A stretch of 63,630 bases of DNA, the filler included. It is 11 parts of 11 records of this genome, joined end to end, with 100 filler letters (N's around TTAATTAATTAA, not from the genome) between each part and the next. Parts side by side here need not be neighbours in the genome. Positions count along the whole stretch, not along the records: positions 1 to 4,749 come from SRR7504441_12514; 10 more parts are not named here. The stretch is one strand, 5' to 3'. Of this stretch, positions 1 through 60,613 are shown piece after piece. The translations under genes and the position numbers were made by a program. The number at the start of each line of letters is the position of its first letter. Positions within the stretch are counted from its first letter, which is position 1. A model generated the notes under the pieces. The model had not been told where the DNA came from and made no database searches. It saw nothing but the letters and a program-made list of their open reading frames with translations.

Positions 1-2375
1 ACCTGGCTGCGATTCCTGGCGCTGACCGCCACCGGAGCCTCCTCGGGGTTTGTTTTATCGGTGCTCGCGGACTGGTGGGAGGCCGGGCCATACCATCAGC
101 TCATCGGCTACGCTGGGTGCGTGCTGCCTGCTCTGCCGCCCTCACGGCGCACAGGTACCTGCTGCTGTCTATCTCCACCCCCGCGACCTACGCTATCGGG
201 GGTCGGATGCGCTTCGCGCGCTTCTGGCACTCAATCCCCCCGCGCTTCCCGATCCCATTCTCGCGGCCAGTGGATGGCGGGCCGACCTTCACGATGCTGC
301 ACACAACGGCCTGGGTGCCGCTGTGCCGCCAGCCTGGGACTCAGCGCTTGTGGGTGCAGCTGATGTACTCGTTTCTCGTGGTCGCCCCTCTGGCTCGGCT
401 TTGCTTGGAGGGCGGCGCAGTGCTTCCGTGGTCCGCCGGAGCGCTGCTGGGGCTGCTGGCACAGGCAGGCCTCCGGGCTCCATCCCTGATAGTGCCGGGC
501 AGGTGCTCATGGTGCTGGCGCTTTTCATGTACAGCCCGAGGGTATCCGCGTCAAAAATGAAGACCTTCTTTGAGACGTCCGACGCAGCCAAGAGTGCAAA
601 CTGGTGCAAGCTGTGGGTGACAATGCAGCTTTTCCTGGCATTCAATGTTCTAGCGCTTGAGCAATTGCAGAAAAACTCGCTGCCAGGTGAGTTCCGCACA
701 GTGGTCGGCACAGTGGTATCTGTCTGGGTGAGGTTGGGTGCCTCTGCAGCTCGCTGAGCTATTGCTGCAGGTGCTCGCTGTCTCAGCGACGCTGACACAC
801 TCTGTAGGAGGCCAGTGGCTCTACCCCCAGTCTTGGAAGCACCTGAATCCATTCAGGGGCGGCTGGCAGCACGTCAGCCTCCAAGCTGCAGGCTGGGCGC
901 TCATATCCTTTGCGGTGATCCAAATCATCCGCTGCGGCTTGAGCAGCCTGAGCTGCGTGGTGATTCCGTTGACGTCTGGCGCTTCGGGACAAGTGCTGTC
1001 CTCTGGCTCTGTGGCAGGGCTGGTGGGCGAGATCCTCTTGGCCTGGTCGCTGCTCGTTTACAAGAGCCCTCAGCAGGACAATGCCAACGAGTCTGTGAAA
1101 GAACCGGCTGTTGGGTGGCTTGAACGTGTCGTACAGGTCCTTGTGGGGACTGCAGGCGGCAGTGGCGTCGGCTTGGTGTTGGTACTCGCCGCTTCAACCT
1201 GGGCCTCGACCTCGCTATGGCCGGTGCTGCTTCGACAGCTTGATCAAATCATGCAATTGGCCCAACAAAGCACTTTGGCCACTGCAGCAGTCTTGGCTGT
1301 GATGTTGGCTGGGCGCTCCCTTCTTAATTCTGCCCTGACCGACTCGAGCGCTCCTCAGTACCCGGCTGGCTCGGAGCGCCGACGCAACCTCGACCGGCTC
1401 CGTGCCCAGAGCAGGCAGTTCCCCAGGCCTTATCCGAACGGTTGGTACTTTGTGAGTGAGTCGGATGAGCTGCAGGAAGGCGTGCTCCAGAGCGTGGCCA
1501 TGTGCGGTGGGCGAGTAGAGCTCACGAGAGAGGGCAGTGCCATCCCGTCGGCAAGATGGTTTGATGAGCAGTCGAGCAAGTCTGCACGCGGGCAGCCGCT
1601 CCGTGTGCAGGAGAGGCTTGGGATGGTGCTGGTGTGGATCTGCGCTGACCGGCAGGAGCCTTTCTTCGAACTCACGATGCTCGATGAGCTCGAGGATCAG
1701 GCCGAGTTCCGGTTTATTGACTCCAAAGAGTGGGAGCCGTTCCAGATGCACGTGATGGAGCCGTCGCAGAATAGCGCAGACTGGTACCACTTCCAGACAG
1801 TCCACCAATGGCTCGGGCAGGATGCCAGCTCACACATCCCAAAGGCGCTGTATGTGGAGCATGAGCTCAAGTGCCAATATGGCAACTGTGTGAACAACAA
1901 AGTCTCTGCTGACGAGCACACAGATCTTGTGCCTCATGAATTGCTCATCCATGAATATGTGCGAGGCCTCAAGCTCTTCGGGTTCATACCACTACCAGGC
2001 TTTCTGGCGACGCTTCTCACCACCAAAGTGAGGATGCAGGGGCCGACTGTCATTATGTTTGTCATCGACAACTGGCTGATGGGCCGTTTCCGAGCCGTGT
2101 TCACGCTGACTCCTACAGAGCCGTTCGAGCAGCGTGCTAGACTATCTGCTTTTGCTTCTCGTCGCTGGCCTTGGTGGCTCGCGCGAGTGTTGATGAAGAT
2201 CGTGATGGCAACTGTGGACCAAGACCGCCAAGTCTGGGAGCACAAGCTAGCCGTCGCTCCAAGGAATCTGGTTTATGGCGACGGCCCGTTCTTGCCTTAT
2301 GGTAAGTGGTTAGAGCAGTTCTATTCACCACAGTCTCTTGACTGGGATGCAGTTTTAGCGCGAGGCGGCATCTAG
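1..2375 (+). CDS. Neverland/DAF-36-like Rieske-family sterol desaturase paralogue A. It has a multi-TM N-terminus and an intact mononuclear-iron catalytic domain but no Rieske cluster ligands. 5' truncated, spliced.
   Basis: FPRPYPNGWY start of the Rieske fold; EPSQNSADWYHFQTVH (D-x2-H-x4-H); QDRQVWEHK; GDGPF...W..QFY C-terminus. No CxH/CxxH between GWY and RVQERLGMVLVW. Introns e.g. 117-154 (GT-AG) and 465-502 (GC-AG). Confidence 0.8.
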
Positions 2376-2551
2376 CGATTTCCATCTAATAGACAATCTT
2401 TACATAATATGATAGATTTAGAAAGATGATTAAAAGTTTATTTGTTATAGGTACAGTAGATCTAAGACAATCATGAATCTTGTACTTGTAAATACAATGT
2501 CATAAAATTTTATGCTCATTGAGACTACAGTAAAAGCAGTTGACTTTCATG

Positions 2552-4374
2552 TCACCATTCCAGCGAATCTAAGCCAGAAAGCTTATCCCACTGCTCCAAC
2601 TCGTCACTATTGGTGTAAAATCCCGTCATCCATTCTTCGAATCTCGGATCAGGCTCCGTCGCTACATAGTCGAGTTCATCGACCAGTTGATTCACTGCGT
2701 TAGCCACGAGGCCTGCTAGCCTCCGTGGGCACCACCACCTCTGAGATACGATGGTACAACTGTCACCGGCTGTTAGCACACTGCCAGTAGGCCAGGCCCA
2801 CCTCATGTGCTGCAGTCTCGCTTGAACGGGCAGTATTGTCAACAGCAGCTGGAACCGACCAAACAACGGCAGCCAGCTCTCAAACAGCCACAGCTATTAC
2901 AGCTGTTAGCATGGTGCAACATGCGGCACTACCTGAGGGCTGATCAGTGTCAAAGAAAGCTCGAGCGAGTACTGTCGCCACAAACGACACGAGCAGCGCC
3001 CCTCAGCACCCATCCGACTGCAACAGTCAGTCAGCAGGGCTCTCCTCCAGGCCAGACTTGCGTAGTTACGGCCAGTTGAGCACTCACCGCCAGAGCGCCT
3101 CTGCAACAGTCGCAAGTGGCAATGCAATAGGCCGCAGGTCCAGCGAGTCTACATGCCACCCGCTTTGAATCTGCTCAAGCCCGGCTGGAGCCTCTTCCTC
3201 CTACCATTTAGAGTAACATGGGTGCCTGTAGGCTGATACCTTGTCAGAAGCTGGCGGATAGGCCACCCACAGCTGACCATGCACCTCTCGCGTTTGGTAC
3301 GCCAGCGCATTCACCTGCTGGTCTCTCAGCTGCACGATGGCGGCAACTCGCATACCCGTGTGCTCCTACCCATTGGCCGATTACAGTATGGAATAGCCTT
3401 GTTTTGACCATCGGCGTCGAAAGCCCACTCATGGTATGGGCATACGACCGTGTTGGCCTCCACCCTGCCGCCATGGCCGAGATGTGTCCCGAGGTGCGGG
3501 CAGAATGCGGAGAGCACTCCTGCGCTATCAACAAAGCACAGCACGGTCAGGACGGCGGCCATGTTACTATCTCTTAAGGCGCTCACCGGCCATCTCCACC
3601 TCGGAATGCCACCAATTCGCGACCCCAGCAAGTACTTGGCTGCACCGCTCGCACAGCAAGGCTGGCGGTGTCGCACAACCGGTACCAACCTCGGGCGAAA
3701 GGAGGCCATCGCTGGCTGCTACTGGCCCTCAGCTCTCGACGAGAACCGGCAGACCGGCCTGAACTAGCTGTATGCGCGGCCCAGACCAGTGCCAGTGCTA
3801 GCCCGGTCTGCGGGAAGCCGCCCCACCATACTAACAGCCCGGCGCCGAGAGCGCTGACCACGTGTTCCAGGCGGCCAGGCCCTGGTGCCGTCTGGAACAG
3901 GTACCCGACGAGGGCGCACGCCTGCTCGGCCCAGTGACCCCCTACCAGCACGAACCAATGCCATCACACCTGGATCGAGTTGACGCCCGCGACCAGATGG
4001 CTGTGCTCGCTAATCCACTCGCGGTGTGCTCGCCATGCACGCCATCCGTCCGCGGCGCCCCCGTGCCCGATGGCCAAAGCTCCTAGGTCCAGTTTTCGAG
4101 CGGTCGCCTACCGGGCCACTCGCACAGCCCTGCGCAGCCACTAGGAACAGACCACGGTCGCGAGTACCACGATCACGGCCGTGGCCTCTTTTGTCCAGCG
4201 GGCCAGCCCGGCAGCCATGGCGACGGCCGCGAGGCGTATGGACGCGCCACCCACCGCCGCGGCCACGTGCACCAGCGCAGCCTGCAGCATGCGCAAGGCC
4301 AGCGGTGGAGCGATCCACATCACCCAAGCTGCCACTGCCAGGAGGCTTGCCGCAGTGACGGGAGATGCGCCCAT
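2552..4374 (-). CDS. Neverland/DAF-36-like paralogue B, with an intact Rieske [2Fe-2S] domain and a degenerate catalytic domain; multi-intron
   Basis: PPFARGWYRL...SAFCPHLGTHLG...VVCPYHEWAF..G....IPYC. The spliced C-terminus aligns with paralogue A (GRFQLLLTILP vs GRFRAVFTLTP; EEWMTGFY vs GKWLEQFY) but lacks DxxHxxxxH. Start ATG 4374 is inferred. Confidence 0.75.
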
Positions 4375-4749
4375 GGTAATTTGCCGTTGAATTGAAGGCA
4401 ATAGCGGCCAGCCGACTCGCCGGCATATGGACCGGTCCCAAGCCTGCCCCCCGCCGCCGTGGCTCATTGGCCACGTGCACGCGCTGCACACCCCTGCTTG
4501 CACGACGTGCACCGCGCCACCGCCCACTTTGCGGCTACCTAGCGGCACGAGCGGCCGAGCGGCCGAGCGGCAAGTCTGGCGGCTGACGTCAAGACCGGCA
4601 AGGTTGTGTTAATAGAAAATATATGTACAGTACATATCCACGGTGAGGTTGGCTGAACCGCACAACATGCAGAGGTGACTTAGTGATACGTGATTGTATA
4701 CGTACGTGTGTGTATGTTATAGCGTGGCGAGCCACGCACGGAGCAAAAA

Positions 4750-8075: not shown

Positions 8076-10994
8076 ATGGAGCGGACGTTCGTGCTTATGA
8101 TGATGGCCAGCACCGCCACAGCGAAGATCTGGCAGAACGAGCTGTACGGCCACGACATGATCCTCGAGTCCCGCGAAGCCTATGACATCCGGCCGTTCAT
8201 CTCGGGCTTTGGGGATACTCCTGGCGAGCCGGTGACCGTGACGTTCGCTGGCGGGTCATACCCCACAACCGTGGGCAGCGACGGGCGTTGGGAGGTGCAG
8301 ATGAATTGCTGTGACAAGCTGACCAACCAAACCCTCTCAGTGGCCACCGCGTCCGGCACGCCTCTCGAGTACTCGAACGTGGCCTGCGGCCAGGTCTATG
8401 TGTGCAGTGGGCAGAGCAACAGTGAGTGCCCGATAGGGTCGCGATAGGTCGCTGACCGGTGGTGTGGCAGTGGGACTGCCGCTGTCGTATGTGGACGGCG
8501 GCCAGGCGGAGATCGCCAGGGCCGATCGCCCCAATTGGCGACTCTTTACAGTCCCGCGTGCCACGGCGGCGACACCGCAAGACAGCATGCCCAATGCCAC
8601 AGGCTGGCAGGTCAGCTCTCCTGCCACCGCCGCGCCGTTCTCGGCTGTGTGCTATCTGACGGCTAAGCACATTGCGGAGATGTACTGGGGGGACGCTCCG
8701 ATCGGACTGATTTGGAGTGCATGGGGTGGCACAAGGGTCGAGGCTTGGGCCCCTTCGGCTGTGAAGCCACTGTGCGGTCCTAAGGGTCCCGATCCGTACC
8801 GGCAGCAGCAGGCCTACGCGGCGCTGTACAACGCTATGATCCACCCACTCACACGATATTCGATCCGGGGTGCGCTGTGGTTTCAGGGCGAGCATAACGT
8901 AAGCGTGGGGTTTGAGCTAGAGATGACCCTGAACTTTGTCAGGTGGTGACGCATAGCTCGCGGGAGGAGTACGCCTGCACCTTTGGGCAGATGATTAACT
9001 CGTGGAGAGATGCTTGGCAAGGCATCGGAGACTTTCCTTTTCTATGGGCGCAGCTGGCTCCGTATACTGGGTACGCTAACCAGTTCGCTGGGCGAGGCGA
9101 TATAAGCACCATCCGGCTGGCCCAGGCCGATGCGCTACCGCACATTGGACTCGACTCGACTGGGATGGCAGTAACTATCGACCTCGGCGATCCGGCCGCA
9201 CCGGCAGGGGATGTGCACTCGCGTGTTAAGGACCCAGTCGCATACAGGCTGGCGCTGCAAGCGATGCACGTGGCATATGCGTTCCAGGAAGGCGAAAGCG
9301 TGGTCAACCACGACCACCCGGAGCTCACCCCCCATCCGTTTGCGCTGTACTTTTCAGGGCCGGTTGTACGGGAGGTCAGTCTTGTAAAAGGGAGCGTGAG
9401 GATCAGGTTTTTGCACGGGGATGGGCTTTACTTGAATGGCACTATGGGGTGTGAGGTTCACCGCGGAGTGGGCTTTGACGGCGGTGTGATTGGCGGAGAG
9501 TGTTGTCGAGCAAGGGACACTTTCCAGCTTTGCACTGGGGACATCCGCAACACATCGCAGTTGACATGTGTCAATGCAAGCGATGCTCATATCCAGGGCG
9601 ATCAAATCACGCTCGCTCTGCCAGACCAAGCTGTGCTGCCAACGTCCGTCCGCCATGCTTACAGCAACTACCCGCAGTGCGCGCTCTATAACAAACACGC
9701 CCTGCCTGCCTCTCCATTTGTGCAAGCTCTGCCTGTGAGGGATCAGGGTCCTGGTGGCAGCCGTGGGGACTCGGTCGCACCCGCAGTCACCCCGCCGCTA
9801 GGAGTGAATACTTGGAACTCATTCCACTGCAATGTCGACGAGCGCAAGATCCGTGACATGGCACAGGCACTCGTGGACACTGGGTTGCGGGAGGCGGGAT
9901 ACGGTATTTAGATACAGTTACGGCTGAGTCTCTAACTGAGCCCTGTGTGCCAGAATACGTCAACATAGACGACTGCTGGCAAGTGATGCGGTCCCCGAAC
10001 GGTTCAATCAACGCAGATCCGGTGCGGTTCCCCGGAGGCATCAAAGCATTGGCCGATGACGTGCACAGCCTTGGTCTGAAGTTTGGCGTTTACAGCGCCC
10101 AGCGCGAGTTCACATGCCAACGGCGGCCTGGAAGCTGGCTCCATGAGGCAGTCGACGTCCAAAGCTACTGTGAATGGGGAGTGGACTACATCAAGCTGGA
10201 TGCATGCGCTGGGCGGGGGTATGCCCAGAACAACATTAGCTGGATCAAGTTCTCGAATGCCATCGCAGACTGCAGCCGTACCCGAGGGTTCCCGATGGTG
10301 CTCAGTGTGGAGAGCTGTGACGACCCCGACAGCTGTGGCCAGTGGATTGGCAAGCTAGCCAACCTGTGGCGTACAGGGGGCGACATCCAGGCGACATTCT
10401 CATCAATCATGAATAACGTGGCGACGAATACTCGGATGGCAAGCTTGGCCGGCCCGTCCGGTGGCCCGTTGGGGGGCGGGCATTGGAACGATGCGGACAT
10501 GCTTCAAGTGCCCGGGCTGGCTGGCCGATTGGCTGACTTGCCTTGTGCTGCAGGTGGGCGATATTGGGCTGAGCTTGACTGAGCAACGGACGCAGTTCGG
10601 CCTGTGGGCTCTGATGGCTTCGCCGCTATTGATTGGGTCCGATGTGAGCATGCTTTCAAACGAGTCACTGGCCATTTTGGGTAACAAAGAGGTGACCGCC
10701 ATCAACCAAGACAGTCTGGGCAAGCAAGGCATTCCAGTTGGCCCAAACGCGACCGACCCCACGACAGCACCATGTTGGGCCAAGCCACTGGCTGGTGGCA
10801 CCGTAGCGGCCATCCTTCTCAATGTCGCAGATGAACCTAAACGAATCAGTTGCACGCTGCAGGATCTGGGACTCGAGACTGTAACGTCTGCTCGAGATTT
10901 GTGGCTTCATCGAGACCTTGGGCTCCCGCAGGATGGTGTGATCACCGCACTGGTCCAATCGCACGACTCGCTTTTCGTCAAGCTCACTCCATGA
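8076..10994 (+). CDS. Secreted sialate-O-acetylesterase-like (SASA/SGNH) domain fused to a GH27 alpha-galactosidase; 4 introns
   Basis: CSGQSN|M, GGTRVEAW, LWFQGE, D.H..K for the esterase. TPPLGVNTWN, YVNIDDCW, YIKLDAC, WRTGGD, WNDADML for GH27. The two domains share one exon ORF (8943-9911). Confidence 0.85.
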
Positions 10995-15948: not shown

Positions 15949-18900
15949 TTACCCCGGCCTACCTTTCAGTGAGTATGTTTCCACTTGTAAGCTTTCACGG
16001 TCATCGACTTCTAGAGTATTGTAGATCCTGACTAGGCATTGCGCATCTAGGGCAGCATATTTCAGCTGCGCCTCACTTAATGGTCTCTGCTCCCAATCGC
16101 TGCATTGTTGCTGTTTATCCAAGCCCAAGCCTAATACATCGCGACTCAGTTTACTCAGCCCACCAGATTGCATCTGGCGAAAGTCAATCACCGATTCTAC
16201 CTATCAAAGCACAAAGCGGTCAAAGTTCGAGGCCAGCAAGACTACTGACCACATCAAAGCACAGGCTGTCGGTCGGCAGCAGCCTCAGCCTGTCCACGTC
16301 CTCTCGCAGCCCATAGCCCAGCTTGATGACAGACGCGTCTACAAGCAGGTCATGCATGAGCAAGGCCATATCAAAGTGGCCGCAGAGGTCCTCATTCAAC
16401 ATGTCAAACAATACCGCAGTTCGTCCGGTTGACATTTGCAGTAAAGCTACCGGAGACTCCGGATCACGGCCATACCGAGAAGGCAACCACTCCGCATCTA
16501 TCCCAATAATTTGCGACGATTCCCCTGAACGTGCAAAAAGCGCCTCTCGAGCCTGTTCAAGCTTACTTGGGTGATCCACCAGCAGCACGCATCCAAGGTC
16601 GATATCAAGGCACGGTCCATCGTGCACACTGCTCGATTTGGGAATAGTAGGAGCATTCAAAGTCACCTCTTTATGCTGAACATGCTCAGAAACTCCAGCA
16701 TCGAGGCCAAAAACGGTGGCAAAACGAATATAAGCATCACGGGCCGCACCAAAATGGGAAGCGCCCCGGCCATTGTAGTCCTGATCGAATTGATGCTTCA
16801 GAGCTGCTAGCGCTCGAGTGGCGCATTCTGGACCAAGACGATGGCACAGCTGCACGAGAACCTGGTCGTGATCATGAAGATAACTAGATCCAAGGCTTTT
16901 CAGGACAGCTGGACCAATATCGAGCGCCTCCGTCTCGGCCCGGTCAAGTAGCAGCCTCACTGCACGGACTGTCCTAGACCGGCCAAGCTTTCCGGGCCCG
17001 GCTGCACGATCCAGAAGAAGCGCAGGGCAGCTTCGAAATGCCTGATCAAGGCTAGGATCAGATAGCATGCACATGATGACGTCGAAGCTTAGTTCTGGAG
17101 CCAAACGCTCCAGCAAACCTTTGCGAGCGACTTTGCTGTCATCGCTGACTTCTGCGCTGCTCCATGCACGCAGCAGTATCTGGACAACCTGGACAGGGCT
17201 CATGTGCCAGCCGTACGGCGACTTGCCTTGACTTTCAGCCGTTCGGCTACACCGCCCAGCTTCTCCAGGCAGACGCCAACATGCATTGCCCTCACGATCG
17301 GGTCTATGGCCGGAGCGGCGCGCTCGAGTTCAGCCATGAACGCAGAGTAATGTTCCGAGGAGCGCATCGCCGAGCAGAGCCGCATGAGTAGATGCGCCAG
17401 TGGCAGAGTCGCATGGTCGGAGCCGGCCCAACAGTGCAGGTCGCATATATCTGTTGAGGGCGGATCGGCTACCGCAAGCATAGACATCGCCTCTGGAGTG
17501 TGCACCAGCGCCTCGAAGTAAGCTGCGAATACTACTTTAGAAGCAATGCACATTTGGGCGCACCTCGGCGCTGTGCGACGAGTGACTGCTTCTTCGCTAA
17601 GTACGTGTGCTTATTTCGTTCACGCTCCAATGCAAGTCCATCAAAGCATTCAAACAGAACCGAAGCACTAGCTCGAGACATTGCAATGGAGGCTCCATCA
17701 GCAGGAGGGGCAAGCAATAGGCCACGCTCGTAAAACTGTCGGAGCACTTCCATTGCTGCCAGATATGAATCGCAGGCTGCGCACACGGCTAGTGCAGCTA
17801 ACATCAAGTCCATCCGCTCCTCATCAGACGAACCGGCCACTGAGTTGAAGTAGTCACAAACCTGTAGAGCGTTCTCCACGTTGGCTGATTCTGTAGCACC
17901 ACATGATGCAATCATCCGCTTCATGACATGCGGAGCCGAAACCTCAGCTGCGCGCTGCCATCTATCGAGCAGACTGAAAAGGGCGCTTGGCTCCATGCCA
18001 CACCTGGACAGGTCGTATCACTCAGGGACAGCCGGTGGGGTACCCATCAACCAGGCTCCAGAAGAGCGAAAGCTCGTCTTCAGCAGTGTGCGCAGCGCTT
18101 GTGCACTGAAGCTGACTAAACACAGCCACAGCGCTATCCACCTGGCAGCGAGGCTGGGGCATGCAATACCGGACCAGCACCTGATTGCCTTGCAGCAGCG
18201 CCTGAACAACGCATTTGTAGGACTCGAATGGCATGTCAAAGCCAGCCGTTATAGCTCTGTTGAGCATTCTCTCGGCATCCCTCTCAGCATGAATTGCCAC
18301 AAAGGCCTCCACTACCGCTACGAATGTTGCAGCGGATGGCGCAAGTTCCGGTCGCCCATGGCTGTCTGACACCTGTTGCATTGCAGCAAGTATACATTCG
18401 ATCTCACTGCCCCACTTGCGCTTCCTGGCACACAGACACTCCATGCAATGGGCTAGCTCCTGCCACGCACCGACAGGTGTGAACAAGAGTGAGAAAATCG
18501 TCCATCGAAACATCTTGCCCAATCTCCAGCCTGTTCTTCAATCTATTCACCTGCCATACATTCACTGCTGTATCTATGCCGGCACAGCACCCCTTCCGTG
18601 ACCACCTCGGTCCTTAACCGCAGCGATCCCGCTTCGAGGCAGCCAAACCGCTTCTGTTGCTGCTTGCCTGCCACACCGGCACTGTCGAATGTAGCGTTGG
18701 CCAGCTGTTCGCACTCCAGCAGCTGCGCCCATTCGCTGGCTAGCCCTGTGGCCTCGGTCCTATCCTGCACCGCATGGAGCACCTGCAGGGCCACCTCGCC
18801 CAGCTGCCCTCCGTCATTTGGGCTGGTGACATTGGCTACAGCCATCCTCAAGGCGCAATCAGCCATGGCGGCCGCTTCTGGGTCCGGGCAGCTAGCACAC

Positions 18901-20162
18901 GCTCGCATAAAGTCTACAAACGGCAGTGGCTCATTGCAAGCGGCCTCCACCGCATGCTCCAGGATGCCAAACGCCAGATCCAGATCGGCTCTGGTTGGTC
19001 TCGGCACTGAATGGCCCTTAGACTGCTGAGCCTTGGTCCACCGCCTGCTGGTGTGAGTGACGCCTCGGATCGCTGTCGAGAACGTGATGGCGTTCGGCGT
19101 GGCGCCATCGGCCTTCATAGACCGATACACTTGCATTGCCCCATCGACGTCGCCCTCCCTTGAGAGCACGTCGATGAGCGCAGTGCATGTGAACACGTCG
19201 TGCTGGTAGCCATACTCGCGGAGCCGCCCGGCTGCCAGCATGGCCCCCTTAGCATCGCACAGCCGCTGACACGCGTTCACCACCGCGTTAAAGCCATACG
19301 ACGGCTGCAGCTGCGGTTGAGCGGGCGCGCCGCAGGTCTGGTCGCCCTCAAGTTCCAGCAATCGCATCCAGTCCACCATTTCCACAGACCGCGCCGCAAA
19401 CTGCTCGGGCGTGCAGCATGACTTTTTCTTGGACCACCGGAATATTATTCGCACAAACTCGCGCGTTGTGGGCAGCTCACCGCCGGCCATCCTCTCCACC
19501 AACTTTGCCACCGCAGGGTCGTGCCGCCAGTCACCCGCCGGTCCAGGTTGCTCCTGTGGCGGCTCGACTGGCTCGGCCAGTTCCTCAATCCGCTCGCGGA
19601 TCGCCTGGTGGATCTTGGCTGTCCCCAGCACGTGTCCTCTGTCGTGTACAAATCGGCACTGCCCCTGCCGCGCTAGCTTCCCGGTCTGCCGCATCAGTGC
19701 CGCGGACAGCTCAGGGGGCACCACCTCGTCCGCCTCGCCCCATACGTGCATGATGCTGTCGCATGATGGCGCCGTCCCATCTTCTATTGCGCCCGCCGCA
19801 AAACCACTCACCAGCACCACCAGCCGCAGCCCGCCCGCACCACCAGCTGCGCCAGAGCTGCCGGGCGCTACCCCCGCCGGCCAGCCGGCCAGCGCGGCTG
19901 CTGCCACCGCCGCGCCCTGGGAGAAGCCAAGCAGCACCGTCACTGGGCGGCTGCGGGCCTCGGCGTGCACTGCGGCCACGGCGGCCGACAGCTGGCCGGG
20001 CGAGGGCGAGGTGTGCGCGTCGGGCCACCAGGCGCGCCCGCCGGATGGACAGCCGGCCACTGGCCCTTGCATGCACCAGCTCGGCAGCCACTCAGGGGCG
20101 AGCCGGGCCACCAGCTGGCCCATCCGATCCGGGCCCGAGTCGTAGCCGTGCAGGCACAGCAT
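15949..20162 (-). CDS. Fusion of an FSH1/DUF341-like serine hydrolase, PPR repeats and a DEDDy 3'-5' exonuclease (MUT-7/EXD3-like); about 7 introns
   Basis: LCLHGY, GFSQG, HVWGEADEVV, HDRGH (hydrolase). DVFTCTALIDVLSREGDVDGAMQVYRSMKADGATPNAITF (PPR). IGIDAEW, ALLQ, KLGYG..ED, CSDWEQRPLSEAQLKYAALDA (exonuclease). Short introns join all ORFs in frame. Confidence 0.75.
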
Positions 20163-20278
20163 ACCGACCACCGGCCACCAGATCTGGCCGATTTTTCTCG
20201 TCGTTCGAAATGCAGGTGAGGTCCAGCTCGATCAGGCGTGATCACCGGCGGTCTGTCTGAGGCCTCGTATCGCGCGTC

Positions 20279-23759: not shown

Positions 23760-23859
23760 NNNNNNNNNNNNNNNNNNNNNNNNNNNNNNNNNNNNNNNNN
23801 NNNTTAATTAATTAANNNNNNNNNNNNNNNNNNNNNNNNNNNNNNNNNNNNNNNNNNNN

Positions 23860-26800
23860 CAGCCAGCCAGCGAACGACGGATTGACCACGCACGTGCTAG
23901 TGGCTGTGGCGGCGTGCATCTACACCCTGGCGGCCACACAAGGGGTGTTCCTTCAGAGCAGCACGGCGTTTTCGGAAGGACTTGCTGCAAAGGGTGGCCT
24001 GACAGCTGTTGATGGCATCAACGTCGTTGAGGTACCGGTGACTCAGAAATCAGGGGACACGACAGTAGACAGCGGCCTCGTCACCACCGTCGCCTGCTCT
24101 GTTATTTGCACTGTACTGCTTGTCCTGGTCGTGGCTGGAGCTGTACATCTGCTCTGCAAGGAGGAGAAGGGCGAGGAGGAGAAGGTGGGGCCCAGACAAC
24201 TCCCCCAGGTGCGGCTTGATGACGATCTTGTGTCCTTGGTGGACATGTCCCAGGCCAATTGCAGCTGTGCTGGCAGTAGCTCAGCCAAACAAGTATGTGC
24301 TGGAAGGCCCCTGCGGTGTGTGCCGGCAAGCACTGCGATGATGATGTTTTCCACGCTGCTGATCGTCAATGCAGCTGCCGCATCTCCAAATCTACCTGTT
24401 CAACGCCATATCGGTCGCTGGAGCGCGCCGCCAGCTCTTGTGCCGACAACAGGTCTTTTCGATTCACCTATCATAGGGAACGGTGACGTGGGAATGACGT
24501 TTGGCGGCCCGCCGAACCACACCACGTTTTGGATTGCTTCAAACTCGTTCTGGTCGGCAAATCAGAAAGTGGACGAGCGACCTAATAATAGGGACTGGGG
24601 TGTGCCTCATACACAACTTCGTATTGGCGATGTGCAGCTCATTGTGCCCTCGTTGATAGGTGCCGAATACAGTGCCTCTCAGGACCTGTACCGCGCAACG
24701 ATTAACGCCACATACACCTCAGCAACGTGCCGGCTACGACACAGCAGCATTGTAACCCGCAATCACATGCTCCAAACACAGCTGGAGGTCTCGGGGACAG
24801 CTTGTGGGAATGCGACCGTCCAACTGATGGCTGGTCGTGGGTATCCTCAGTCCTTTGGCCCGACCACTGCTGGCGTGAAGGGCGACAGACTATACATCAC
24901 GCGAGAGTCGGTCAGCACAAGGCACAACACCATTACAGCCGCTCCGTGTTTCAATGGAGGGCAGCAGATCAACTCTCAGCGTTGGAAAAACCAAAGCACG
25001 GTGCTCACCCTCGCCGATGGTCGGTGCATCTTCTCTGTCTCTGTCGATGGTCGACCGAAATTGAGTATTGGGGCCTGTGCAAGTGGTGATGCCTGGGCTC
25101 TTGTGCCTATGGAGCCATCTGGTGGACCTGGATTTGTGCTGAAGCATCAGTCGTCATCAGGTAGATGCGCAACGCTTGATGCCAATAATGAGTTTCTGGT
25201 AGAGGTCGAGTGTGCAACAGCCACTGCACTGTGGCTTTATGACCATAGCTCAGGCCATGTATATGTACAGAATTTGGAGTATGGATGGGGAAAGGGGAGG
25301 TGCCTGACTGCGGTGGAGCCCAATCCGTTGGTGGTTGCAGCGATCGCCCTCCAGATGCTGGACATTCATGGTCTGCCTTTGGAATTGCAGGGGCAGAGTG
25401 ACCATGTGCAGCACAGCTCCTTCAATTTAAATTTGGACGCGCTCGGTGGCACTGCTACCATCATGGCTGCAGTGTTGACTAAAGGCGATTGCACGGGTTG
25501 TGACCCCAACGTGACCAATATGTTGGATTCTGCGTTTGTCTTACTGGACCAGCATCAAGGTAGCGGCTCGACCGCTCTCACAGAGCCACATGCGATGTGG
25601 TGGGAGGAATACTGGCAAGCTGGTGCCAAACTGGACCTCGGATCAGACTGGGAGCAACTGGAAGGTTTCTACTACGGAATGCATTACCAAATTGGCAGTG
25701 CATCCAGACCGAATCGATTCGCACCTGGATTATGGGGGCCATGGCTGACTGCCGAGAGTTCTGAGTGGGCTGGCGACTACACATTAAATTACAACTTCGA
25801 GGCGAACTTCTACGGGGTCTTCTCTGACAATAGACCTGAGTTGGCCGAGCCCTATTTCAGAACTATCCTCAACCACGTCGATCTCGGACGATGGCGTGCC
25901 TCAATGCCAAGGTGGGGCGGAGGCGCGATCTTATCGACGCCCGGTTTCTGGGCACAGGATTTTAATCTAATGAGTGCGGTCTCAACAGATGGCTCAGGCT
26001 TTGTTGGCGCTGGTTATGGTGGCATTGAGCTTCCAGTGCACTTGTCTCCCTGGAAACATTTCTACTTTGCGAGTGACTACGGGCAGAAGAGCATAGGTGC
26101 TTTCTCAACAAAGCCCTTTATGGACTACTACGATTACACAGGAAACAAGACCTTTCTGAAGGAGGTTTTGTACCCTCTGGTTCTCTTGAATTCTGAATTC
26201 TACAGCTCGTATATGATCAAAATTAACAGCAAATACAACGTCATGCACTCATGCGCGATGGAGTGTTGTTCGGCCCAGGGAAATCTCACAGAGAACGACA
26301 TCCGGGTGTCCAATAACCCACCATTTGATCTTGCGTTTGTGAAGCGGACCTTCCGGGAGCTACTTTCCTATTCGGAGATTCTGGATACAAATGCTGATAA
26401 GCGACCGCAATGGCGTCACATCCTTGATAACTTGGCAGATTATCCACTCACCAAAGACGAGGAAGGACACTCTGTGTATGCACAGGCGACTTTGAACACA
26501 GGACCAACCTCCACTGTTACAGACGGATTCCCAAATGCCTCAAAGTGCGTTTGGTTGCAGGGGCGTAAGGATACATCAGAATGTGGCAACGCTCGTTATC
26601 CTATCGCTTACTTTAATGCTATGCATCCAGGCGAGGACATCGACCTTGCCAGCGACTCTACTGCACTGCGAATCGCACGTCGGACCACCGCTGTAGTGAA
26701 TGGGATCAATGACTATTCTCCAACGAACGGCCTATGTATGGCCTGGCCTGCGTCTGCGAGGGTGGTCAGTAAGACAGAAGACCTCCTCCAGCACTTTGAC

Positions 26801-27235
26801 TTGGCTCTGAATCATACTATCATGCCAAATTTCATGCCTTTCATCATGAACCGCCCTACTGGCGGTCCAGGCGCCAGCATGGAGAACTCTGGTGCCACAG
26901 TTGCTGTGAATGATCTCATGGCCTCTGTGCATGGCCATGGGGCGAATGCTTCCCTCATCATCTTCCCAGGGGGTTGGCCTGCAGGGAAGCTGGTTAGCTT
27001 CCGTGACGTGCGTGTGCGTGGCGCCTTCACTGTGTCAGCCACAGCACGCGGTACTGGCCATGGAGTGACCTTGATTGGGCCGGCTGTGATCACATCGTTG
27101 GTTGGAAACCCATTGGCACTATCTTGGCCTGCAACTCCGACTGTGGAAAAGGGAGGTGTGCCTGTAGATGTAACGCAGTACGGTGATACATTCCATTTCC
27201 AGACCACAATGGGGAGCACTTACACGGTACAGTGA
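23860..27235 (+). CDS. GH95-like glycoside hydrolase (alpha-L-fucosidase-like) with a ricin-B-like insertion; true start may be 24338
   Basis: PIIGNGDVG; W..YW; APGLWGPW; WAGDYTLNYNFEANFYG; FRDVRVRGAFTVSA C-terminus; Cys/Trp lectin-like segment (SQRW, GRC, CLTA); single 1117-codon ORF. Confidence 0.75.
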
Positions 27236-27566: not shown

Positions 27567-29165
27567 GACAAGGTGCGTCCCCGGCTGAGAGGAAGAAACC
27601 GAATGGCTGGGCAGGACGGGGAGCCGGCGCTGCATGAGGCAGCCTACAACGGGCACACCGAGGCGGTGGAGCTGCTGCTGGATGCCAAGGCCGATGTGAA
27701 TGCCAAGAACAAGGTGCGCTGCCCGCCCGGCTGGGAGGGAGCGAGTGGCTGGGGGGCTGAGCGCGAGGGGGCGACTGGGCAGGACGGGTACACGGCGCTG
27801 CATTGGGCAGCTGGCGAAGAGCACACCACTCACCAACAACACACTGCCATGTTGGAGACGCTCCTGGAGGCCAAGGCTGACATAGATGCCAAGAGCATCA
27901 AGGTGAGCCGGGCTGGGAGAAAGTGCCCACCTGAGAGAGGGACGGCTGGCTGGGCAGGATGGATGGACAGCGCTGCATCTGGCAGCTCAAGCAGCAGGGA
28001 CTCGCACAAGACAGACTGCGACGACTGAGCTGCTTCTGACGGCCAGGGCCGACATGCATGCTAAGGACAAGGTGGGCGCGCTACTGCCTGTGGGCGGCCA
28101 CTGAGACTGGGCGGTGAAGGCCGGGGAGACGCCGCTCCAGCTGGCCGAGAAGTGCAAACATGTAACGACCGCCGCTGTACTGAGTGCGGTGAGCTGCCAG
28201 CCGCGGCTGCCTCAACTAGAACTGTGCAGGCTGCCCAGCCACAGGCAAATGGTTCCTCAGCGGACACCCAGCGGGTCAATTCTGCCTCAACCTCACACAA
28301 AAAGCCAGCTGACTCAAAGAAGCGCAAGGCACCAGCCACTGGAGATGCTAAACGAAGCAAGAAACCCAAACCCGGACAGGTAGATACCTACACCACGCCT
28401 AGTGACGGCTGTGGGGGGCAGAACCAGACCTCAAGGGGTCAACAAGGAGCATCGGCAGAGGGTGATCCGCCCAAAGGCCAGATTCCAAAGTTTCCAAAGC
28501 CCCCTTCTGGCACACCACCTCAAGACTTGTTCGATTTGTTGCTGAACATCATCGAGACTCAACCCAGTAGTACACGTAAAGGCAACCTGCTAGAGGAAGT
28601 CGCAGAGTTATATTTCTTGCAAGATCAGACTGTGAAGGAGGTACATCTTGTTGGCGCTAGCCTCAGAGACAAGAAGGATTTTGGCCTTGCTCCCCGGGAC
28701 GCTTTAAAACATGGTGACGGCGGCCAAGATCTTATTGTTGAAAGGAGCAAAGGGAGCACAGGGAAGATATCAGCCCTCTTTGGTGACTTTGTTGAGGTTG
28801 TTGATTGCAAGGCCTATTTTGGTCACACAAAGGTCCACAGCAAAGACATTCGTAGCCTGATTGGTGCAATGCACTGCATCAAGTCCGAGCACAACCCCCG
28901 GTTGGCCACCCTCTTGACAACTGCGAGCAGCCCATTGACTGACTGTGCTCAAGCCCATGTGGCCCAATACAACAATAATGACTCAGACCACAGAATCCGC
29001 GTCATCAATGGTAACGAGTTTAAGAGAGATATGGTGAACGGTCGCCCACCAAACACAAATGGCTACCTTGATGACACAGGCTTCCAAAAGGAGCTGATGA
29101 AGATCCTTGAAAAGATTCGTGAAGCTGCATCTGGCGAGAAGTACACTTATGTCAAGTGGAAGTGA
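27567..29165 (+). CDS. Ankyrin repeats + basic NLS-like linker + Mrr_cat-like PD-(D/E)xK nuclease domain (5' truncated)
   Basis: Ankyrin exons DGEPALHEAA, DGYTALHWAA, DGWTALHLAA, AGETPLQLA. Intron 28189-28229 joins them to the ORF carrying KGNLLEE, GDGGQDLIV, VVDCKAY, KDIRSLIG, LLTTASSPLT..A, IRVING. Confidence 0.7.
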
Positions 29166-29574: not shown

Positions 29575-32500
29575 TTAACACAACAGGTGCGGTAGAGCTG
29601 CCTCGATGCCCGACCAGGCGGTCGCCTCAAGCGCTCGGCGAGCTTCTGGCTCTCCAAAGCCCATTGCCATGCATTGCTCCACCATTTGCTGCTTAAACAT
29701 TATTGCCTTTGTAGCCTGCACAGCTTCCTCTGCTTCACGAGCCTCCTCTTCTTGCGCTTTCTTTGCCCGGCGCTTCTGTGCTTTGCTCATTTTCTGGGCA
29801 GGTGGCTTCTGCCCGCTTAGATCTACACATGCAGTTGTATTAGCGGCGACGTGCTCCTCAGTAGCAGCAGTTGCGAGCAGGTAGTCCAGTGCTGCCTCTG
29901 AGCTTACCCAGCCAGTGACTGTGAGGGCTTTACGAGCAGCGTCCTCTCCAAAGCCCATCTCCATGCATCGCTGGACCATTTGGGTCTTAATAAGCTGATG
30001 CTCTGCGGCCTCTTCCGCTTCACGAGCCTCCTCTTCTTGCGCCTTCTTTGCCCGGCGCTTTTGAGCTTTGCTCATTTTTGGTGGTTGTTGCGCAGCACTT
30101 ACATGCTCCAGCGAGGTACTGGGCTGATTCTCTTCCACATCCTGACGAGTCTCTTGCTGTGAGCTCTGCTCAGAAATCCACTTACGCAACTTTAGTCTGG
30201 GGCCTTTTTTCAGCCCAAGCTCCTGCAAGTCTTTGTCACTCATGTCGACTAATCTGCGGTGATCAATCTGATGCTCCCGAAACACCTCGTGAAGATGCTC
30301 CAATCCGATTGATCCCAGCAAAGCAGACAGGTGTTCATCTCCCTCCTCCGATTGAATTTCGCTCTGTGCATCTGCCCCATGGTCAGAGTCTTGCTCCTCC
30401 GACGGCTCTGCGATCGGTTCGGTCTGCTGTTGCTTCTTCTTCTTTTTCTTCTTGGAGCCTGCAGTCGTTACAGGCGTCTCTTGCTGCGCTGGTAGGCCGA
30501 GGAGCAGAACGCCAGGATTGTCCGGGTCCTCCATGCATGTCACACCAGACACATTGCTCAGCTCCTGAAGCACAGCATGCTTGATACGAGCGTCGCCACC
30601 GGAGTGTCGACCCCAGCCACAGATCAACTCCACAATGCCGCCTGAGCCGCCCCTATGCATACCGACTGTGGACTGAGCACACGCCACAGCTTGGGCAACG
30701 GTGAGTCCGTGCAAGTCGATCTCCTCAAGGATGTTACGTGACTCGTTTCTGGCCTGAAATGCCAGGTCCCCAGCCTGCTCACTCGCCAGCCGTGCCAGCC
30801 TGCTCTCCTCTTGAGCCAGCTCTGTCAGGCCTTGGGCAAGTACAGGATCCGCCTGGCTGTGGCTAGCAGAATGTGCAGTGCTTCGGAGAGCCTGGCTTTC
30901 TTCCCGGTGTTGCTGAGCTTGATTGTGCAGCCGATTGCTCTCCAGAATGGCCCCGAGATTGGGTGCCCGTTGTAACCGATCTGTTGACTGCGCCACCCTG
31001 GACCGAGCCCTGGCAAGATTACTCTCTACAATCTCCGTAATCACGTTGCCCTCGTCAGCTTCAGCAGGAGCCGCATCAAACCTGCTTTGCTGGGCATGAT
31101 AGAGAAACTTGCCATGTGCGTCGACATACTGGTAGATCTCCATCCAAATTCGGCATTTGCTGTTCAAGGTACTGGCTGAGCCAACAATGTGTAGCTCGCA
31201 CTGAGCTCTCGATAGGGCCACATTAACGCGTTGCCACTGAGAGGTGAAGCCTAGTACACTCTCTTTGTTAGCACGTACTGTGCTGAGCATGACAACAGCA
31301 GCCTCGGTGCCTTGTGCAGCATCCACGGTTCCAATGGAGAGCAAAGGATCAAACGGAGCTGTCCTTGCAGGGTCAAGATTCTCAGCTTCGCCTGGCTGCC
31401 GAGCTTCAGGGAACAGCTTGGTCAAAAGGTCTGACTGAGCCTTATACATGGCAATGATGTGTATGGCTCGCGGTGGCCCTGCGCGTTCCCTCTCTTGGGA
31501 ATACAGCTGCCTACACACTTGAGCTTCGCGCAGATTCTGCCAGGACCTGCCCCCAGGACCTGGCTGTTCGAGGCCATCGCCAGCTATTTCAAAGTCGTGC
31601 CAGAACAGACAGCACTGTTGCCTAGCTGCTCCGTTCATTGTCCCAGTCGGGTCCACTCTCTTCCTCAACTCAGCGATTTCCCTGTCTGTCTTTAATGGAA
31701 CACCTTTGGGTGCGTAGAACACTTTGGATATCATCCCACAGATGGCAGGGTGCAGCCTGTACTGGAGGTCCAGTTTCCTAAAGCTCCTGCCTTGGGCGAT
31801 GCACCTCTCCATCAAGGACCGGTTGACGCCTGCCACTTTGAGCTGCTTAGACATGCTCGAAGGAGGCAGCTGGAAATGATCTCCGACAAGAATAATGTTC
31901 ACTGGATTCAGCCGAAGCAAGAGCGGGATCGCTGGCTCACTAGTCGCTCCAGCTTCGTCTATTATGACGGTATGGGCATCTCTGCCGGACAGCTCAGTGT
32001 GGATTCTGCTGGTGCAAGCAATCGTGCACAAGATCACTCGGGCATTGACCACTAGCTGCCTCTGGGCTCTGAGCTTCTCAACGCGTAGCCTGTTTCCAAT
32101 TTCCTTCTCCAGCATCTGAAACTGGTCCCGCAGATGGTACCAAGCAGCCCAGCGGGCCCGTACACTTGCACGCCAGAGCCGATCTGCGATGCGCCGACAA
32201 GCCTGAATACAAACATCTCAGGCAAGGCAATTCACGGGTCACACCTCTCTTTGCTGGCCCTGTCTCCTCCTAGACGAGAAACTTTCGGGCGTGGCCTTCT
32301 CTTGATACGATCTGCGGTATTGGATACCAGACGTGCTCGTGTTGGCCATTACGTTGCCCCACCACACCTGGAGCGACTCGATCTGTTCCTCGTCCAACTG
32401 TGACGGTGCTGCTGCTTGAGGTGTCGAATACACCATATCTTCCTCCTCATCGGTTCCGGCTTGTTCGTCAGCAAATCCCGAACCGAATATGTCATCATAC

Positions 32501-34035
32501 AAGCCCATATCATTGCATGCCTGGACGCTCTCTGACGGCTCCATCCGCGACTGGTATCGGCAAGCCCAATCATATCTCGCATCGCAGCTCTCCCATGTGA
32601 CTATCATGTTCACCAGCAGCGAGTGGCAATGCTGGATTGCATCTAGAAACCTGAGCCAAAAGCACACTTTCGGGTCGCTCTCGACTTGCATCGGGATTGT
32701 GAAAGGCAAAGCCGCAGCAGCCACTCTCTGAACATTCCCCAGCACCACCAACGGAGACTGCTGATGGTACGGCTTGAGCTTTGAAGCGACGTTGCCGATC
32801 GCCTCGTTGCAGACACTCGTGATCACCGTCACCTTATCTGCTGGAACCTTTGAACGGAGGATGTGCAGGATCATAGCTGACTTGCCAGTGCCAGGCGGGC
32901 CTTGGATGATCTCCAGATTAGTCTCCAAGCCCTCAACCGCCTCCCTCTGTGGCTGATTGATCGGCGCGTACCCAAACTCCGGTGATATGTAGGTCTGGAT
33001 CTCGCGGCCAGCAAAGTCGCCTCGCTCCACGTGCGACGGATCGACCAGGGTCTGCAGAACAGCCGGGGCAGGAGCTTGGCTAGTTAGGAGCCGTTCGATG
33101 GTCTGGTGCTGGTGGACCAAGTTGCCCACGTAACCGATCAGTTCAACTCTCGGGTTAGTCTTGCCCGTCACCATCTCCGGGACAACCAAGAGCTCTGTGG
33201 AGATTTCACGAGGCGCCTCGCCATCGAGCCAGCGGGTGTATTTCACTTGGCTGGCTATCCCGCCCTCCTTGAGGGCCTTCACGGTATCCTGGACGTACCG
33301 GCTAGACACCTCCACGAAGAACAGCTTCATCAGCGGCCGCCGGCGATTCCCTCGGCGTCTGGCTCTCCCCCCGCCCTTCCCCTTGCCCTTCCCCTTGCCC
33401 TCGGCCCGCCTATCCTCGCGCTCTGTGATATTGAACGGAGTCTCGCCTGTTGCCTGCGATATGAAGGCCAGGAGTGCATCCTTGCTCCTGTGGCTCGCGT
33501 GCACCCCGACCAGCATGAGAACTTGGCTCCGCCGCTCGCAGCTGCTCACCACCATGTGGTACCGCCCGTCCACCTTCAGCAAGGTCTCATTCCAGCCGGC
33601 CCGGGCGTGCCCGCCCCGGTGGAAGTCCTCGTTCCCCCAGTGGTCCAGCGCCAATCCTGTCGGGCTCTCCCGGGTGGCCTGGAGCTCGATCGCCGGCTGG
33701 CTGGTGGACTCGGAGAGCATGTGCCAGAAGTCTGCGAGATTGTTCTGGCGCATCACGGACAAGTAGTGCTCGGCCGACTCGAACGCGAGCGGGACCGTAG
33801 CGTACTCGGTTGGCTGCGGGTTGACGAATATGTCATACAGGCCGGGCTCGTTCGAGACTTGCTGGCGGGCCATCCGGTCGGAGTCTTCCCGGCACGAGGT
33901 GCGGCAGACCGGGCACCAGGTCTTTTGGCGGAGCCATTCCTCGATGCACTTGGTATGAAACGTGTGCGCGCAGGGCAGGCTCACCGCCTCATCGATGATG
34001 GGCTCCAGGCAGATCACACAGGCGCCCTCCGCCAT
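29575..34035 (-). CDS. RING-H2 + SF1B (UPF1/DNA2-NAM7-like) helicase + Smr + SAM + two UBA domains (about 1470 aa)
   Basis: CVICLE...LPCAHTFH..CI..W....WCPVCR; QGPPGTGKS, IIDEAG, GDHFQLPP, QYRLHP, TVDAAQG, RVNVALSRA; IDLHGL..ICGWGRHS..NPG; LLGSIGLEH..F..H.ID..L.ELGL..GPR; two MGF..AL motifs. GT-AG intron 32203-32244 joins the two ORFs in frame. Confidence 0.88.
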
Positions 34036-34140
34036 GTTCTCCACCCGGGCCGAGGTCTCACGCGACCAAAGTTACGTTTTACGAGCTATTCTACAGCTCG
34101 CCAGCTCTGTAAATCATGTACCCCGGCCGTTGTAGGGTAT

Positions 34141-49411: not shown

Positions 49412-50923
49412 CTAGATTGGATATTCAAACTTTGCCAGATCGCACGGCCCCGGCGCAAACCCTGCAAACTCAAGCCCGGTAGGCCGCCCAAAGCCGCTGA
49501 GCACTGTAAAGCGCAGCCCCGAGGCTTGAACAGTGGAGTCTAGCAAGTCAATCCTGTTGGCACCGACCGTTGTGCCGGAAGAGACTTTGACCCAGTTGCC
49601 AGAGACGTTGGCCTCCACCCGGTACTCCGCGATCATCTGGCCGCAGCTCTGATCCTCGCGCATTCGGACTCGGTCGATTGGACTGGCCGAAAACTCGAGC
49701 TCAACAGAGAGCTCGCCAGGCTTGATTGAGCCTGAGCCTACAGCTGTGTCGTAGCACGAGCGGATCCAGTCGCCGAACTGGGCGTACGCCATCGCGTGCT
49801 TTGGGTCGACCCCGCCGGTCCGGTCGATTGCGAAGTCGATTTCCAGGTGGCCGTTGGCCCCGATGGAGTTGTGGTACATCTCCACCAGCGTGCTCAGCGG
49901 ATTGAGCGAGTCTCCCGGGGTGTAGAACCAGTGATCGCCGGCCTGCAAAGTAACGTCCACGCCAGACGGGTACCAGCTCGCCCCAGTAGCATTGGGCGGC
50001 GCCCCAGCCCCAGAGCCCGACGGGCACCAACCACAGGCGGCCGTGCTCCACACAGCGCCTCCCGGCCCGCGCTCCGGCAATCCGCTCTCGGTGCCACACC
50101 AACGGACCGGGCTGTCGCTCACCCCACCGCCGTTGAAAGCCACCGCGTCCCGGGCGTTGGTCCGTCGAACTAGCGCCCCGACCTTGTCACACATGGCGCC
50201 GCAGCCGCCATCGAGCCATATCTCAGTCAGGTTGCCGAAGTCGGTCCAGAGCTCCGTAACCTGCGCCAGTGCCAGCGCCTCGAACTCGGCCTGGCTCACC
50301 GGGGCCTGGCCGGGCAGCGCACTGGCTGGGCCGTTGGCCTTGTGCCCGGCCACGTTGAGGTAGAAGTTATTGGTTAAGGAGTAGTAGAAGCCGTGACCGA
50401 TCTCGGCGGCGGTGGTGGCGGCCACAAACTGCTCGAGCACGTTCAAATGGGCCGGCACGTGGTAACGGTACGGGGACCCGTCGGGCAGGGTTGTTTTGGT
50501 CTGCCAGGCCAGGAAACCGCAGCCGTGCTTGGCCGTGAGCACCGCCGAGCTTGCCCCGAGGGCCTTGAACGACTGGACCCAGCTGGAGACGTTGAGGTTG
50601 GTCGGATTGAACGAGCCCACGTCGCTGCTGTTGCACCGGTCGCTGTTCGGGTCACAGCCGTTCCAGTTGTGCTTGTCGCACCCGGGGTCGCCGTCGTGGA
50701 AGAAGGTGGCCATCCCGAAGTGAATGAGCGCCGAGATCGAGCCCTGGTAGGCCAGCTGCTGCCGGGTCGGCACCGGGAGCGGCCCCGCGTGCGGCAGGAG
50801 CGTAAAACCGCCGGCGGCAGCAGTTGCACTGGCACTGCCAACATGGGCAGCCACCAAGAGCGCCACGACTCCCAGCTGTCCTCGCAACCGAGTACTCCAG
50901 CTCGGCCTCGCCGGCCTCGCCAT
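49412..50923 (-). CDS. GH29 alpha-L-fucosidase (secreted, intronless) with a C-terminal F5/8-like beta domain
   Basis: ALIHFGMATF; FNPTNLN..W; VLTAKHGCGFLAW; EIWLDG; WFY; YHNSIGANG. Confidence 0.9.
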   Translation of the reverse strand: MARPARPSWSTRLRGQLGVVALLVAAHVGSASATAAAGGFTLLPHAGPLPVPTRQQLAYQGSISALIHFGMATFFHDGDPGCDKHNWNGCDPNSDRCNSSDVGSFNPTNLNVSSWVQSFKALGASSAVLTAKHGCGFLAWQTKTTLPDGSPYRYHVPAHLNVLEQFVAATTAAEIGHGFYYSLTNNFYLNVAGHKANGPASALPGQAPVSQAEFEALALAQVTELWTDFGNLTEIWLDGGCGAMCDKVGALVRRTNARDAVAFNGGGVSDSPVRWCGTESGLPERGPGGAVWSTAACGWCPSGSGAGAPPNATGASWYPSGVDVTLQAGDHWFYTPGDSLNPLSTLVEMYHNSIGANGHLEIDFAIDRTGGVDPKHAMAYAQFGDWIRSCYDTAVGSGSIKPGELSVELEFSASPIDRVRMREDQSCGQMIAEYRVEANVSGNWVKVSSGTTVGANRIDLLDSTVQASGLRFTVLSGFGRPTGLEFAGFAPGPCDLAKFEYPI

Positions 50924-50975
50924 TGGCTGTCCGTTGGCTGTCCGTTGACAACATACAGTAGGCTCGCACGCAACA

Positions 50976-60513: not shown

Positions 60514-60613
60514 NNNNNNNNNNNNNNNNNNNNNNNNNNNNNNNNNNNNNNNNNNNNTTAATTAATTAANNNNNNNNNNNNNNNNNNNNNNNNNNNNNNN
60601 NNNNNNNNNNNNN

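Follow-up and report, generated by a model that had tools for sequence, protein, structure and literature searches.

The question raised by this locus is whether the two cofactor sites of a Rieske oxygenase, the [2Fe-2S] cluster and the mononuclear iron, may be divided between two neighbouring genes. The pair concerned, here called A and B, occupies positions 1-4749, a contig that forms the first part of a 63,630-nt chain of contigs linked by N's; the whole of this chain is referred to as the window. The source is a marine single-celled eukaryote, and the introns of A and B measure 38-70 bases. The genes lie tail to tail, as a preliminary description of the locus had proposed: their stop codons end at 2375 (A, + strand) and 2552 (B, - strand), and the convergent 3' ends are separated by an AT-rich spacer of 176 bp (2376-2551). 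Inspection of open frames and Pfam matches revealed no third gene on contig 1-4749. A and B are paralogues and their losses are reciprocal, the iron site being kept in A only and the cluster in B only. Neither protein thus combines a cluster motif with an iron site in a single chain, yet jointly they supply both, which is the arrangement expected of a split Rieske oxygenase. It is likely that A and B form a heteromeric enzyme, in which B serves as the electron donor and A as the catalyst.

Gene A retains an iron site with a bridging Asp in a helix-grip domain, and B has none. The motif D-x2-H-x4-H, comprising the bridging Asp and two ligand His residues, lies at 1779-1805 (+), downstream of an EPSQN motif with its E at 1758, and its residues are near-invariant or invariant in the family alignment. 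The third iron ligand is assigned to the Asp at 2223-2225, within QDRQVW (2220-2237, +), by alignment to KshA and from the usual chemistry of Rieske oxygenases; in the numbering of the structural model the four residues are D134, H137, H142 and D282. Both motifs stand where the preliminary description had placed them, and the loss of the cluster segment which it had claimed is borne out. The span from NGWY to RVQER measures 55 codons in A, in one open frame, and 54 residues in its best homologue, P0001, compared with 96-106 residues in nine of 11 intact relatives (the pattern was unmatched in the other two). The family profile aligns to A at positions 3-52 and 111-368, jumping the cluster region, and Pfam returns a match to KshA_C only, with none to Rieske. 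What is left is a Rieske remnant (1437-1616, +) with the base strands retained and a cluster-binding part of about 43 aa, including all Cys and His ligands, deleted. The gap is not due to misassembly, since an independent DNA contig from another marine run covers 1467-1692 with no differences and no gaps; nor can splicing conceal the segment, because an intron cannot restore absent residues.

Guided by P0001, gene A is modelled as three exons on the + strand, encoding 643 aa with six hydrophobic stretches (P0001 has 641 aa). The first two encode the membrane region: 363-464, identified by homology to the start of P0001 and containing three variants, all synonymous, and 503-727, found by tblastn of P0001 (E 2e-10). 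They are separated by an intron with GC-AG ends (465-502), placed by homology outside the RNA cover, which restores co-linearity with P0001. A GT-AG intron (728-770) precedes the last exon (771-2375, within an open reading frame at 732-2375), which carries membrane helices, the Rieske remnant, the full catalytic domain and the stop. The gene itself may begin further 5'. Hydrophobic open frames with no Pfam match occupy 1-362 (+), upstream of the modelled start, which suggests that the membrane region is longer than modelled and runs off the contig. No alignment was obtained for a repeat suspected in this region. Judged by its branch length, the catalytic domain of A is as conserved as those of intact enzymes (end branch 0.16 vs a median of 0.38 in the catalytic-domain tree), and the C-terminal 331 residues have a predicted fold with a predicted local distance difference test score (pLDDT) of 89.5, its best fold matches being KshA, with other oxygenases also matched. 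In the ESM Atlas, 1380-2372 is best matched by a bacterial cluster with 150 members, about 281 aa in length, in which KshA_C is the sole domain, and other clusters returned have VanA_C alone; both kinds are possibly cluster-less catalytic subunits.

Gene B, on the - strand, has kept what A has lost. An exon at 3356-3524 encodes all four [2Fe-2S] ligands (C-x-H...C-x2-H at 3502-3431, as previously described), with support from RNA and a Pfam Rieske match (E 2e-12); it corresponds roughly to the segment missing from A, and its four variants are all synonymous. The Rieske domain is intact, with 56-60% identity to the relatives P0003 and P0004, and its last strands are encoded at 3240-3314 (RNA joints; tblastn). 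No D-x2-H-x4-H occurs in the next exon (3088-3200), which corresponds in position to the iron motif; an RNA contig covers 3097-3199, where the motif would be expected to begin, with no differences. This exon is followed by a remnant of the catalytic-domain sheet (2933-3017, RNA joint 2893/2933) and by one or more last exons (2552-2893) in which the C-terminal part of the catalytic domain is encoded in degenerate form, the Asp ligand being absent. RNA covers 2838-2893 of the latter, and hhalign aligns this region to the family (E 1.3e-4) with a gap where a probable sixth intron of 42 nt is placed (2760-2801). The absence of the motif had been correctly noted, and the loss is larger than was claimed: beyond the Rieske domain, B is about 60 residues shorter than its relatives, with 15-20% identity, and it lacks the bridging Asp, both ligand His residues and the Asp ligand (QD reads QL).

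The splicing of B was followed in a single, shallow poly(A) metatranscriptome run, whose contigs show four introns directly (2894-2932, 3201-3239, 3315-3355 and 3525-3586). A fifth, GT-AG intron (3018-3087) has indirect support, in that an RNA piece enters it by four bases with two mismatches, matching the prediction for the spliced form. Upstream, an open frame at 3587-3963 encodes a hydrophobic anchor, judged by eye, and the first Rieske strands (tblastn, 47% to P0003 at 3732-3586); its 5' border is provisional, the RNA reaching over 3587-3623 only. Two splice models were tried for the core, giving 373 or 387 aa, and in each the frame stays open from 3963 down to 2552. The start at 4374, as first proposed, is not supported: all three variants in that frame are non-synonymous, two bases are inserted at 4108 in one run, and the RNA does not extend above 3623. 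The 5' region (3964-4374) may comprise N-terminal exons or an untranslated region.

Both genes are under selection, as judged from their variants in four runs aligned to the window, all aquatic, marine or seawater metagenomes and each from a separate study. In the core of B, seven of eight variants are synonymous (P ~0.001), and, of the eight, six either are found again in two or three runs or lie with such recurring variants; in its degenerate tail (2552-2893) the figure is three of three (P ~0.025). For A, six of eight are synonymous (P ~0.009), counting one F-to-Y change located 5' of the model, and the pooled value for both genes is 13 of 16 (P ~2e-5). Neutral evolution of either gene, one of the conditions named as refuting the proposal, is not what the variants indicate.

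The loss in A is shared by a second organism. Its homologue P0001 (641 aa, 61% identity) has the same cluster loss, bordered by other residues than in A, and the two proteins pair at 100/99, on short branches, in the catalytic-domain tree. On these comparisons P0001 is an A-type orthologue which shares the cluster loss. Of 25 matches to A, P0001 alone lacks the cluster segment internally, P0008 being an N-terminal fragment. Both sites are present in 120 of 125 full-span proteins; P0060, discussed below, fell under the coverage filter of this census and is not counted. Named intact members come from Cymbomonas, dinoflagellates and a diplonemid. In P0006 (Cymbomonas tetramitiformis) an intact member is fused to an N-terminal DUF2306 membrane domain, and other members bear unrelated long membrane N-termini.

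A cluster-only and an iron-only subunit can form one working site because the electron step runs between neighbouring subunits. In the proposed mechanism, the ancestors of A and B would be intact Rieske oxygenases with a membrane anchor, belonging to one protist subfamily (Neverland/KshA-like, with the EPSQN motif). B would carry the [2Fe-2S] cluster, receive electrons from a reductase and dock its cluster His onto the bridging Asp of A, and A, with the mononuclear iron and the substrate pocket, would perform the oxidation. A complex was modelled from A (331 aa), the 56-residue cluster exon of B, a 2Fe-2S cluster and iron, and it scored 0.77 vs 0.25 for the best of three controls, with the runs agreeing in at least 91% of contacts and a partner pLDDT of at least 76. 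Among microbial pairs the score mark was attained by 51 of 78 with solved structures, as against 2 of 108 that were mismatched (eukaryotes, 39 of 65 and 2 of 126), in a calibration set that contained no ligands. In the model, the exon docks through its ligand loops on A residues 134-141 (including D134, Y136 and H137) and 284-304; the contacts on the B side are residues 9-14 and 29-32, among which the cluster ligand H31 touches the iron-site motif of A. This surface is the trans electron-transfer face, and the exon does not fill the deletion of A in cis. The acceptor face of A is, in the model, intact and fits B. The donor face is missing from A, and in B the acceptor face is deleted or degraded, which makes a closed three-fold ring unlikely; with these two faces gone a 1:1 pair, or multiples of it, is predicted instead of a ring, and such is probably the stoichiometry.

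Several observations weigh against this view of A and B as a dedicated pair. The model used a single exon of B, and solved Rieske trimers share the interface, so that the pass may simply echo known structures; close cousins of the partner pass the complex test as well. For these reasons the model does not in itself show that A binds B. In the trees, the nearest intact row is P0002 for A (81/67) and P0004 for B, which groups with the intact P0003-5 at 93/93 in the Rieske-domain tree; A and B are not shown as sisters, and a grouping of A with P0001 and P0003-5 was not recovered, nor was it rejected (approximately unbiased (AU) test, p 0.32). Searches for an orthologue of B found none, with no match among 233 candidates with the C-terminal exon, which is weak evidence, and with 26 matches among 36 candidates with the cluster exon, all of them intact enzymes, bacterial variants or fragments; among the best 150 of 9,039 matches to the profile, P0060 alone was a convincing Rieske-only protein. 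Neither P0001 nor P0060 has a known partner. A second linked A/B pair, which was to be sought among relatives, was not found, either in a metagenome scan (352 pattern matches, resolving to four loci, all intact or partial family genes) or in scans of viral contigs (no loci for A, 62 distant Rieske loci for B); the two-gene unit of the preliminary description is thus seen on one contig. Each variant of A was read from a single contig, with a depth under 5. The RNA run that revealed the introns of B yielded no contig on A, and co-expression was not seen, although a lack of cover in a single run of low depth need not mean that A is silent. Finally, the 5' region of B admits 623 open splice models, none of them favoured.

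The alternative which survives these results best is that A and B are specialised accessory subunits of mixed assemblies rather than an obligate pair, A being fed by an intact third paralogue and B feeding one. A docking face common to the family, the success of close cousins in the model test and the lack of a demonstrated sister relation are all compatible with it. It is nevertheless improbable: no other copy of the family occurs in the 63.6-kb window, itself a small fraction of the genome, and exactly reciprocal losses in adjacent genes would be explained more simply by mutual dependence. The heteromeric enzyme with complementary losses, as originally suggested, is supported by P0001, by a spliced and selected B, by the docking model and by the precedent that chlorophyllide a oxygenase (CAO) provides; the obligate character then ascribed to it goes beyond this evidence.

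The single convincing Rieske-only protein, P0060, has 489 aa, occurs on six contigs and has a near-identical cluster mate. Its cluster motif is intact, and its catalytic domain is of full length without any iron ligand; the predicted structure retains the oxygenase fold (mean pLDDT 72), toward which the alignment of intact relatives biases the model. P0060 is probably a separate Rieske-only subunit. The contigs carrying P0060/P0199, from JGI and Logan, are about 1.7 kb long. B, on a long branch (2.1 changes per column), is joined weakly to P0060 in the whole-protein tree (79, with a long-branch warning); the two stand apart in the Rieske-domain tree, where the AU test does not reject a joint clade (p 0.09). 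The sequences suggest that these two Rieske-only forms likely arose independently. Other candidates were set aside: P0058 and P0063 appear to be mis-spliced, the motif of P0107 is a variant one, several more are fragments or frameshifted, and the Cys lost in P0057 is a lone variant, its cluster mates having the residue intact.

A separate origin of Rieske-only forms, suggested as possible by P0060, also lends itself to a second alternative, in which A would be fed by a reductase-borne Rieske domain or a free ferredoxin, B would be a membrane Rieske ferredoxin acting elsewhere, and their adjacency would be a relic of duplication. There is a model for such an arrangement in NdmC, which is described as lacking a cluster and using the extra Rieske cluster of NdmD (PMC4408171), and the best Atlas match of A, as mentioned, is the bacterial KshA_C-only cluster (281 aa, 150 members). 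This explanation is less probable than the previous one, for B carries a degenerate catalytic tail under selection, unlike a plain ferredoxin, and its cluster exon fits the iron face of A in the model. A third explanation, the decay of one duplicate or of both, or losses that are artefacts of assembly or splicing, is very improbable and largely refuted already: the long branch and unfixed 5' end of B and the missing RNA of A would agree with it, but independent DNA spans the gap of A, RNA spans the place of the missing motif in B, the frames are open, the pooled variants are mostly synonymous and the orthologue P0001 has the same loss.

If A and B act as a heteromeric enzyme, the next question concerns its reaction. 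The preliminary description called it sterol 7-desaturase-like, which stands as the nearest label, the intact relatives bearing automatic names such as 'cholesterol 7-dehydrogenase/desaturase'. What speaks against a closer identification is that A and B belong to an EPSQN protist subfamily lying apart from the ENGAD-type motif group, that of animal Neverland. In the subfamily of A there is a Gln before the bridging Asp, at a place where Neverland has Glu. The EPSQN subfamily comprises 34 rows (support 98) inside a wider Neverland-like clade of 59 rows (Shimodaira-Hasegawa-like approximate likelihood ratio test 100), which includes a protist protein labelled K14938/NVD. These figures come from a quick, midpoint-rooted tree of proteins with both motifs together with A and P0001; it omits B, P0060 and 12 cluster mates and contains no assayed Neverland, DAF-36 or Des7. 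No assayed member of the EPSQN subfamily was found. Desaturation of a sterol at C7 is the first candidate, held with some reserve; another oxidation of a sterol appears less likely, and a non-sterol substrate less likely again. A bolder proposal, put forward tentatively, is that the subfamily has been split repeatedly, once in the A/P0001 lineage with B and separately in P0060, and that the present case is a membrane-bound 1:1 heterodimer acting on sterols outside the three-fold ring, with a chemistry new to assay.

Elsewhere in the window, a further pair of convergent paralogues is found at 60570-63607, where two ABC1 atypical kinase-like genes face each other on opposite strands (Pfam ABC1 matches at 60570-61433, +, and at 61662-62237 and 62507-63607, both -). 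Two adjacent long frames at 29578-34071 (-), possibly a single protein, contain a RING finger, an Upf1-like helicase (AAA_11/AAA_12), a SAM domain and two UBA domains, and at 18546-20231 (-) PPR repeats share one frame with a serine hydrolase FSH1 domain. Four glycoside hydrolase genes lie within 63 kb (9857-10579, 23816-27232, 49415-51061 and 58120-59802), namely two alpha-galactosidases, a GH95 and an alpha-fucosidase, and an Mrr-type nuclease domain occurs at 28065-29162.

Among known systems, solved Rieske oxygenases are reported as three-fold rings, because the electron passes between subunits, with about 12 Å between the cluster and the iron of the adjoining subunit, as against 45 Å to the iron of its own (PMC12445004). 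KshA, the oxygenase of 3-ketosteroid 9alpha-hydroxylase (PDB 4QDF, 4QDC, 4QDD and 2ZYL), is the best solved match to A both by sequence profile (E 1e-48) and by fold (E 3e-12, TM-score ~0.6, with 12-13% identity in the structural alignment); unlike A, it is a bacterial homotrimer with both cofactors. The C7(8)-desaturases of the Neverland, DAF-36 and Tetrahymena type share with A and B, according to their descriptions, a membrane anchor, a Rieske domain and a KshA_C-type domain (PMC4967820, PMC12445004), and are recorded from animals, ciliates, Capsaspora and Naegleria (PMC4967820, PMC8296547). The Neverland/DAF-36 enzymes are single chains with both cofactors, whereas in A and B these are split over two genes. 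NdmC, of the NdmCDE 7-methylxanthine demethylase, resembles A as a non-heme iron oxygenase devoid of a cluster, yet its donor Rieske domain is reported to be fused to the reductase NdmD and to need the glutathione S-transferase (GST)-like NdmE (PMC4408171). The putative donor of A is instead a paralogue that has degenerated and whose modelled part contains no reductase domain, and neither a Rieske-reductase fusion nor a GST-like helper was found in the B model and contig 1-4749.

The closest parallel is the two-gene CAO of Micromonas, in which MpCAO1 supplies the iron site and MpCAO2 the Rieske cluster, and for which both products are reported to be needed (10.1101/2025.02.10.637544). Similar pairs are described from other Mamiellophyceae, Chloropicon, Caulerpa and Bigelowiella (10.1101/2025.02.10.637544, PMC9615114), with the assembly presented as disputed between a heterodimer and a trimer of dimers (PMC9615114). 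Algal CAO is the main eukaryotic exception to the three-fold Rieske ring. A and B are themselves not a CAO, as Pfam assigns the catalytic domain to KshA_C, not PaO, and the nearest solved relatives are KshA. They share with the split CAO the division of iron site and cluster over two genes, and electrons would likewise pass from one product to the other; they differ in belonging to the KshA_C/Neverland-like branch, in having several membrane helices and in a substrate that is probably a sterol, as well as in lying adjacent, tail to tail, and activity has been demonstrated for CAO, whereas A and B are known from sequence and models.

A survey of arthropod Neverland paralogues contains, in the part available, no split form (10.1101/2025.04.14.648839), and no split Neverland/KshA-like enzyme is described in the literature searched, which left out most subscription papers; the case appears new within that literature, in agreement with what was first stated for the sterol desaturase family. 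Single-gene searches in marine protists would miss or mislabel split enzymes of this kind. A and B would offer a natural minimal donor-acceptor pair for asking whether the ring is needed, and an electron-supply module separate from the catalytic module would be useful for engineering sterol desaturation. Next to CAO, they would represent a second, independent case, in the sterol-type branch, making the splitting of Rieske oxygenases a recurring route.

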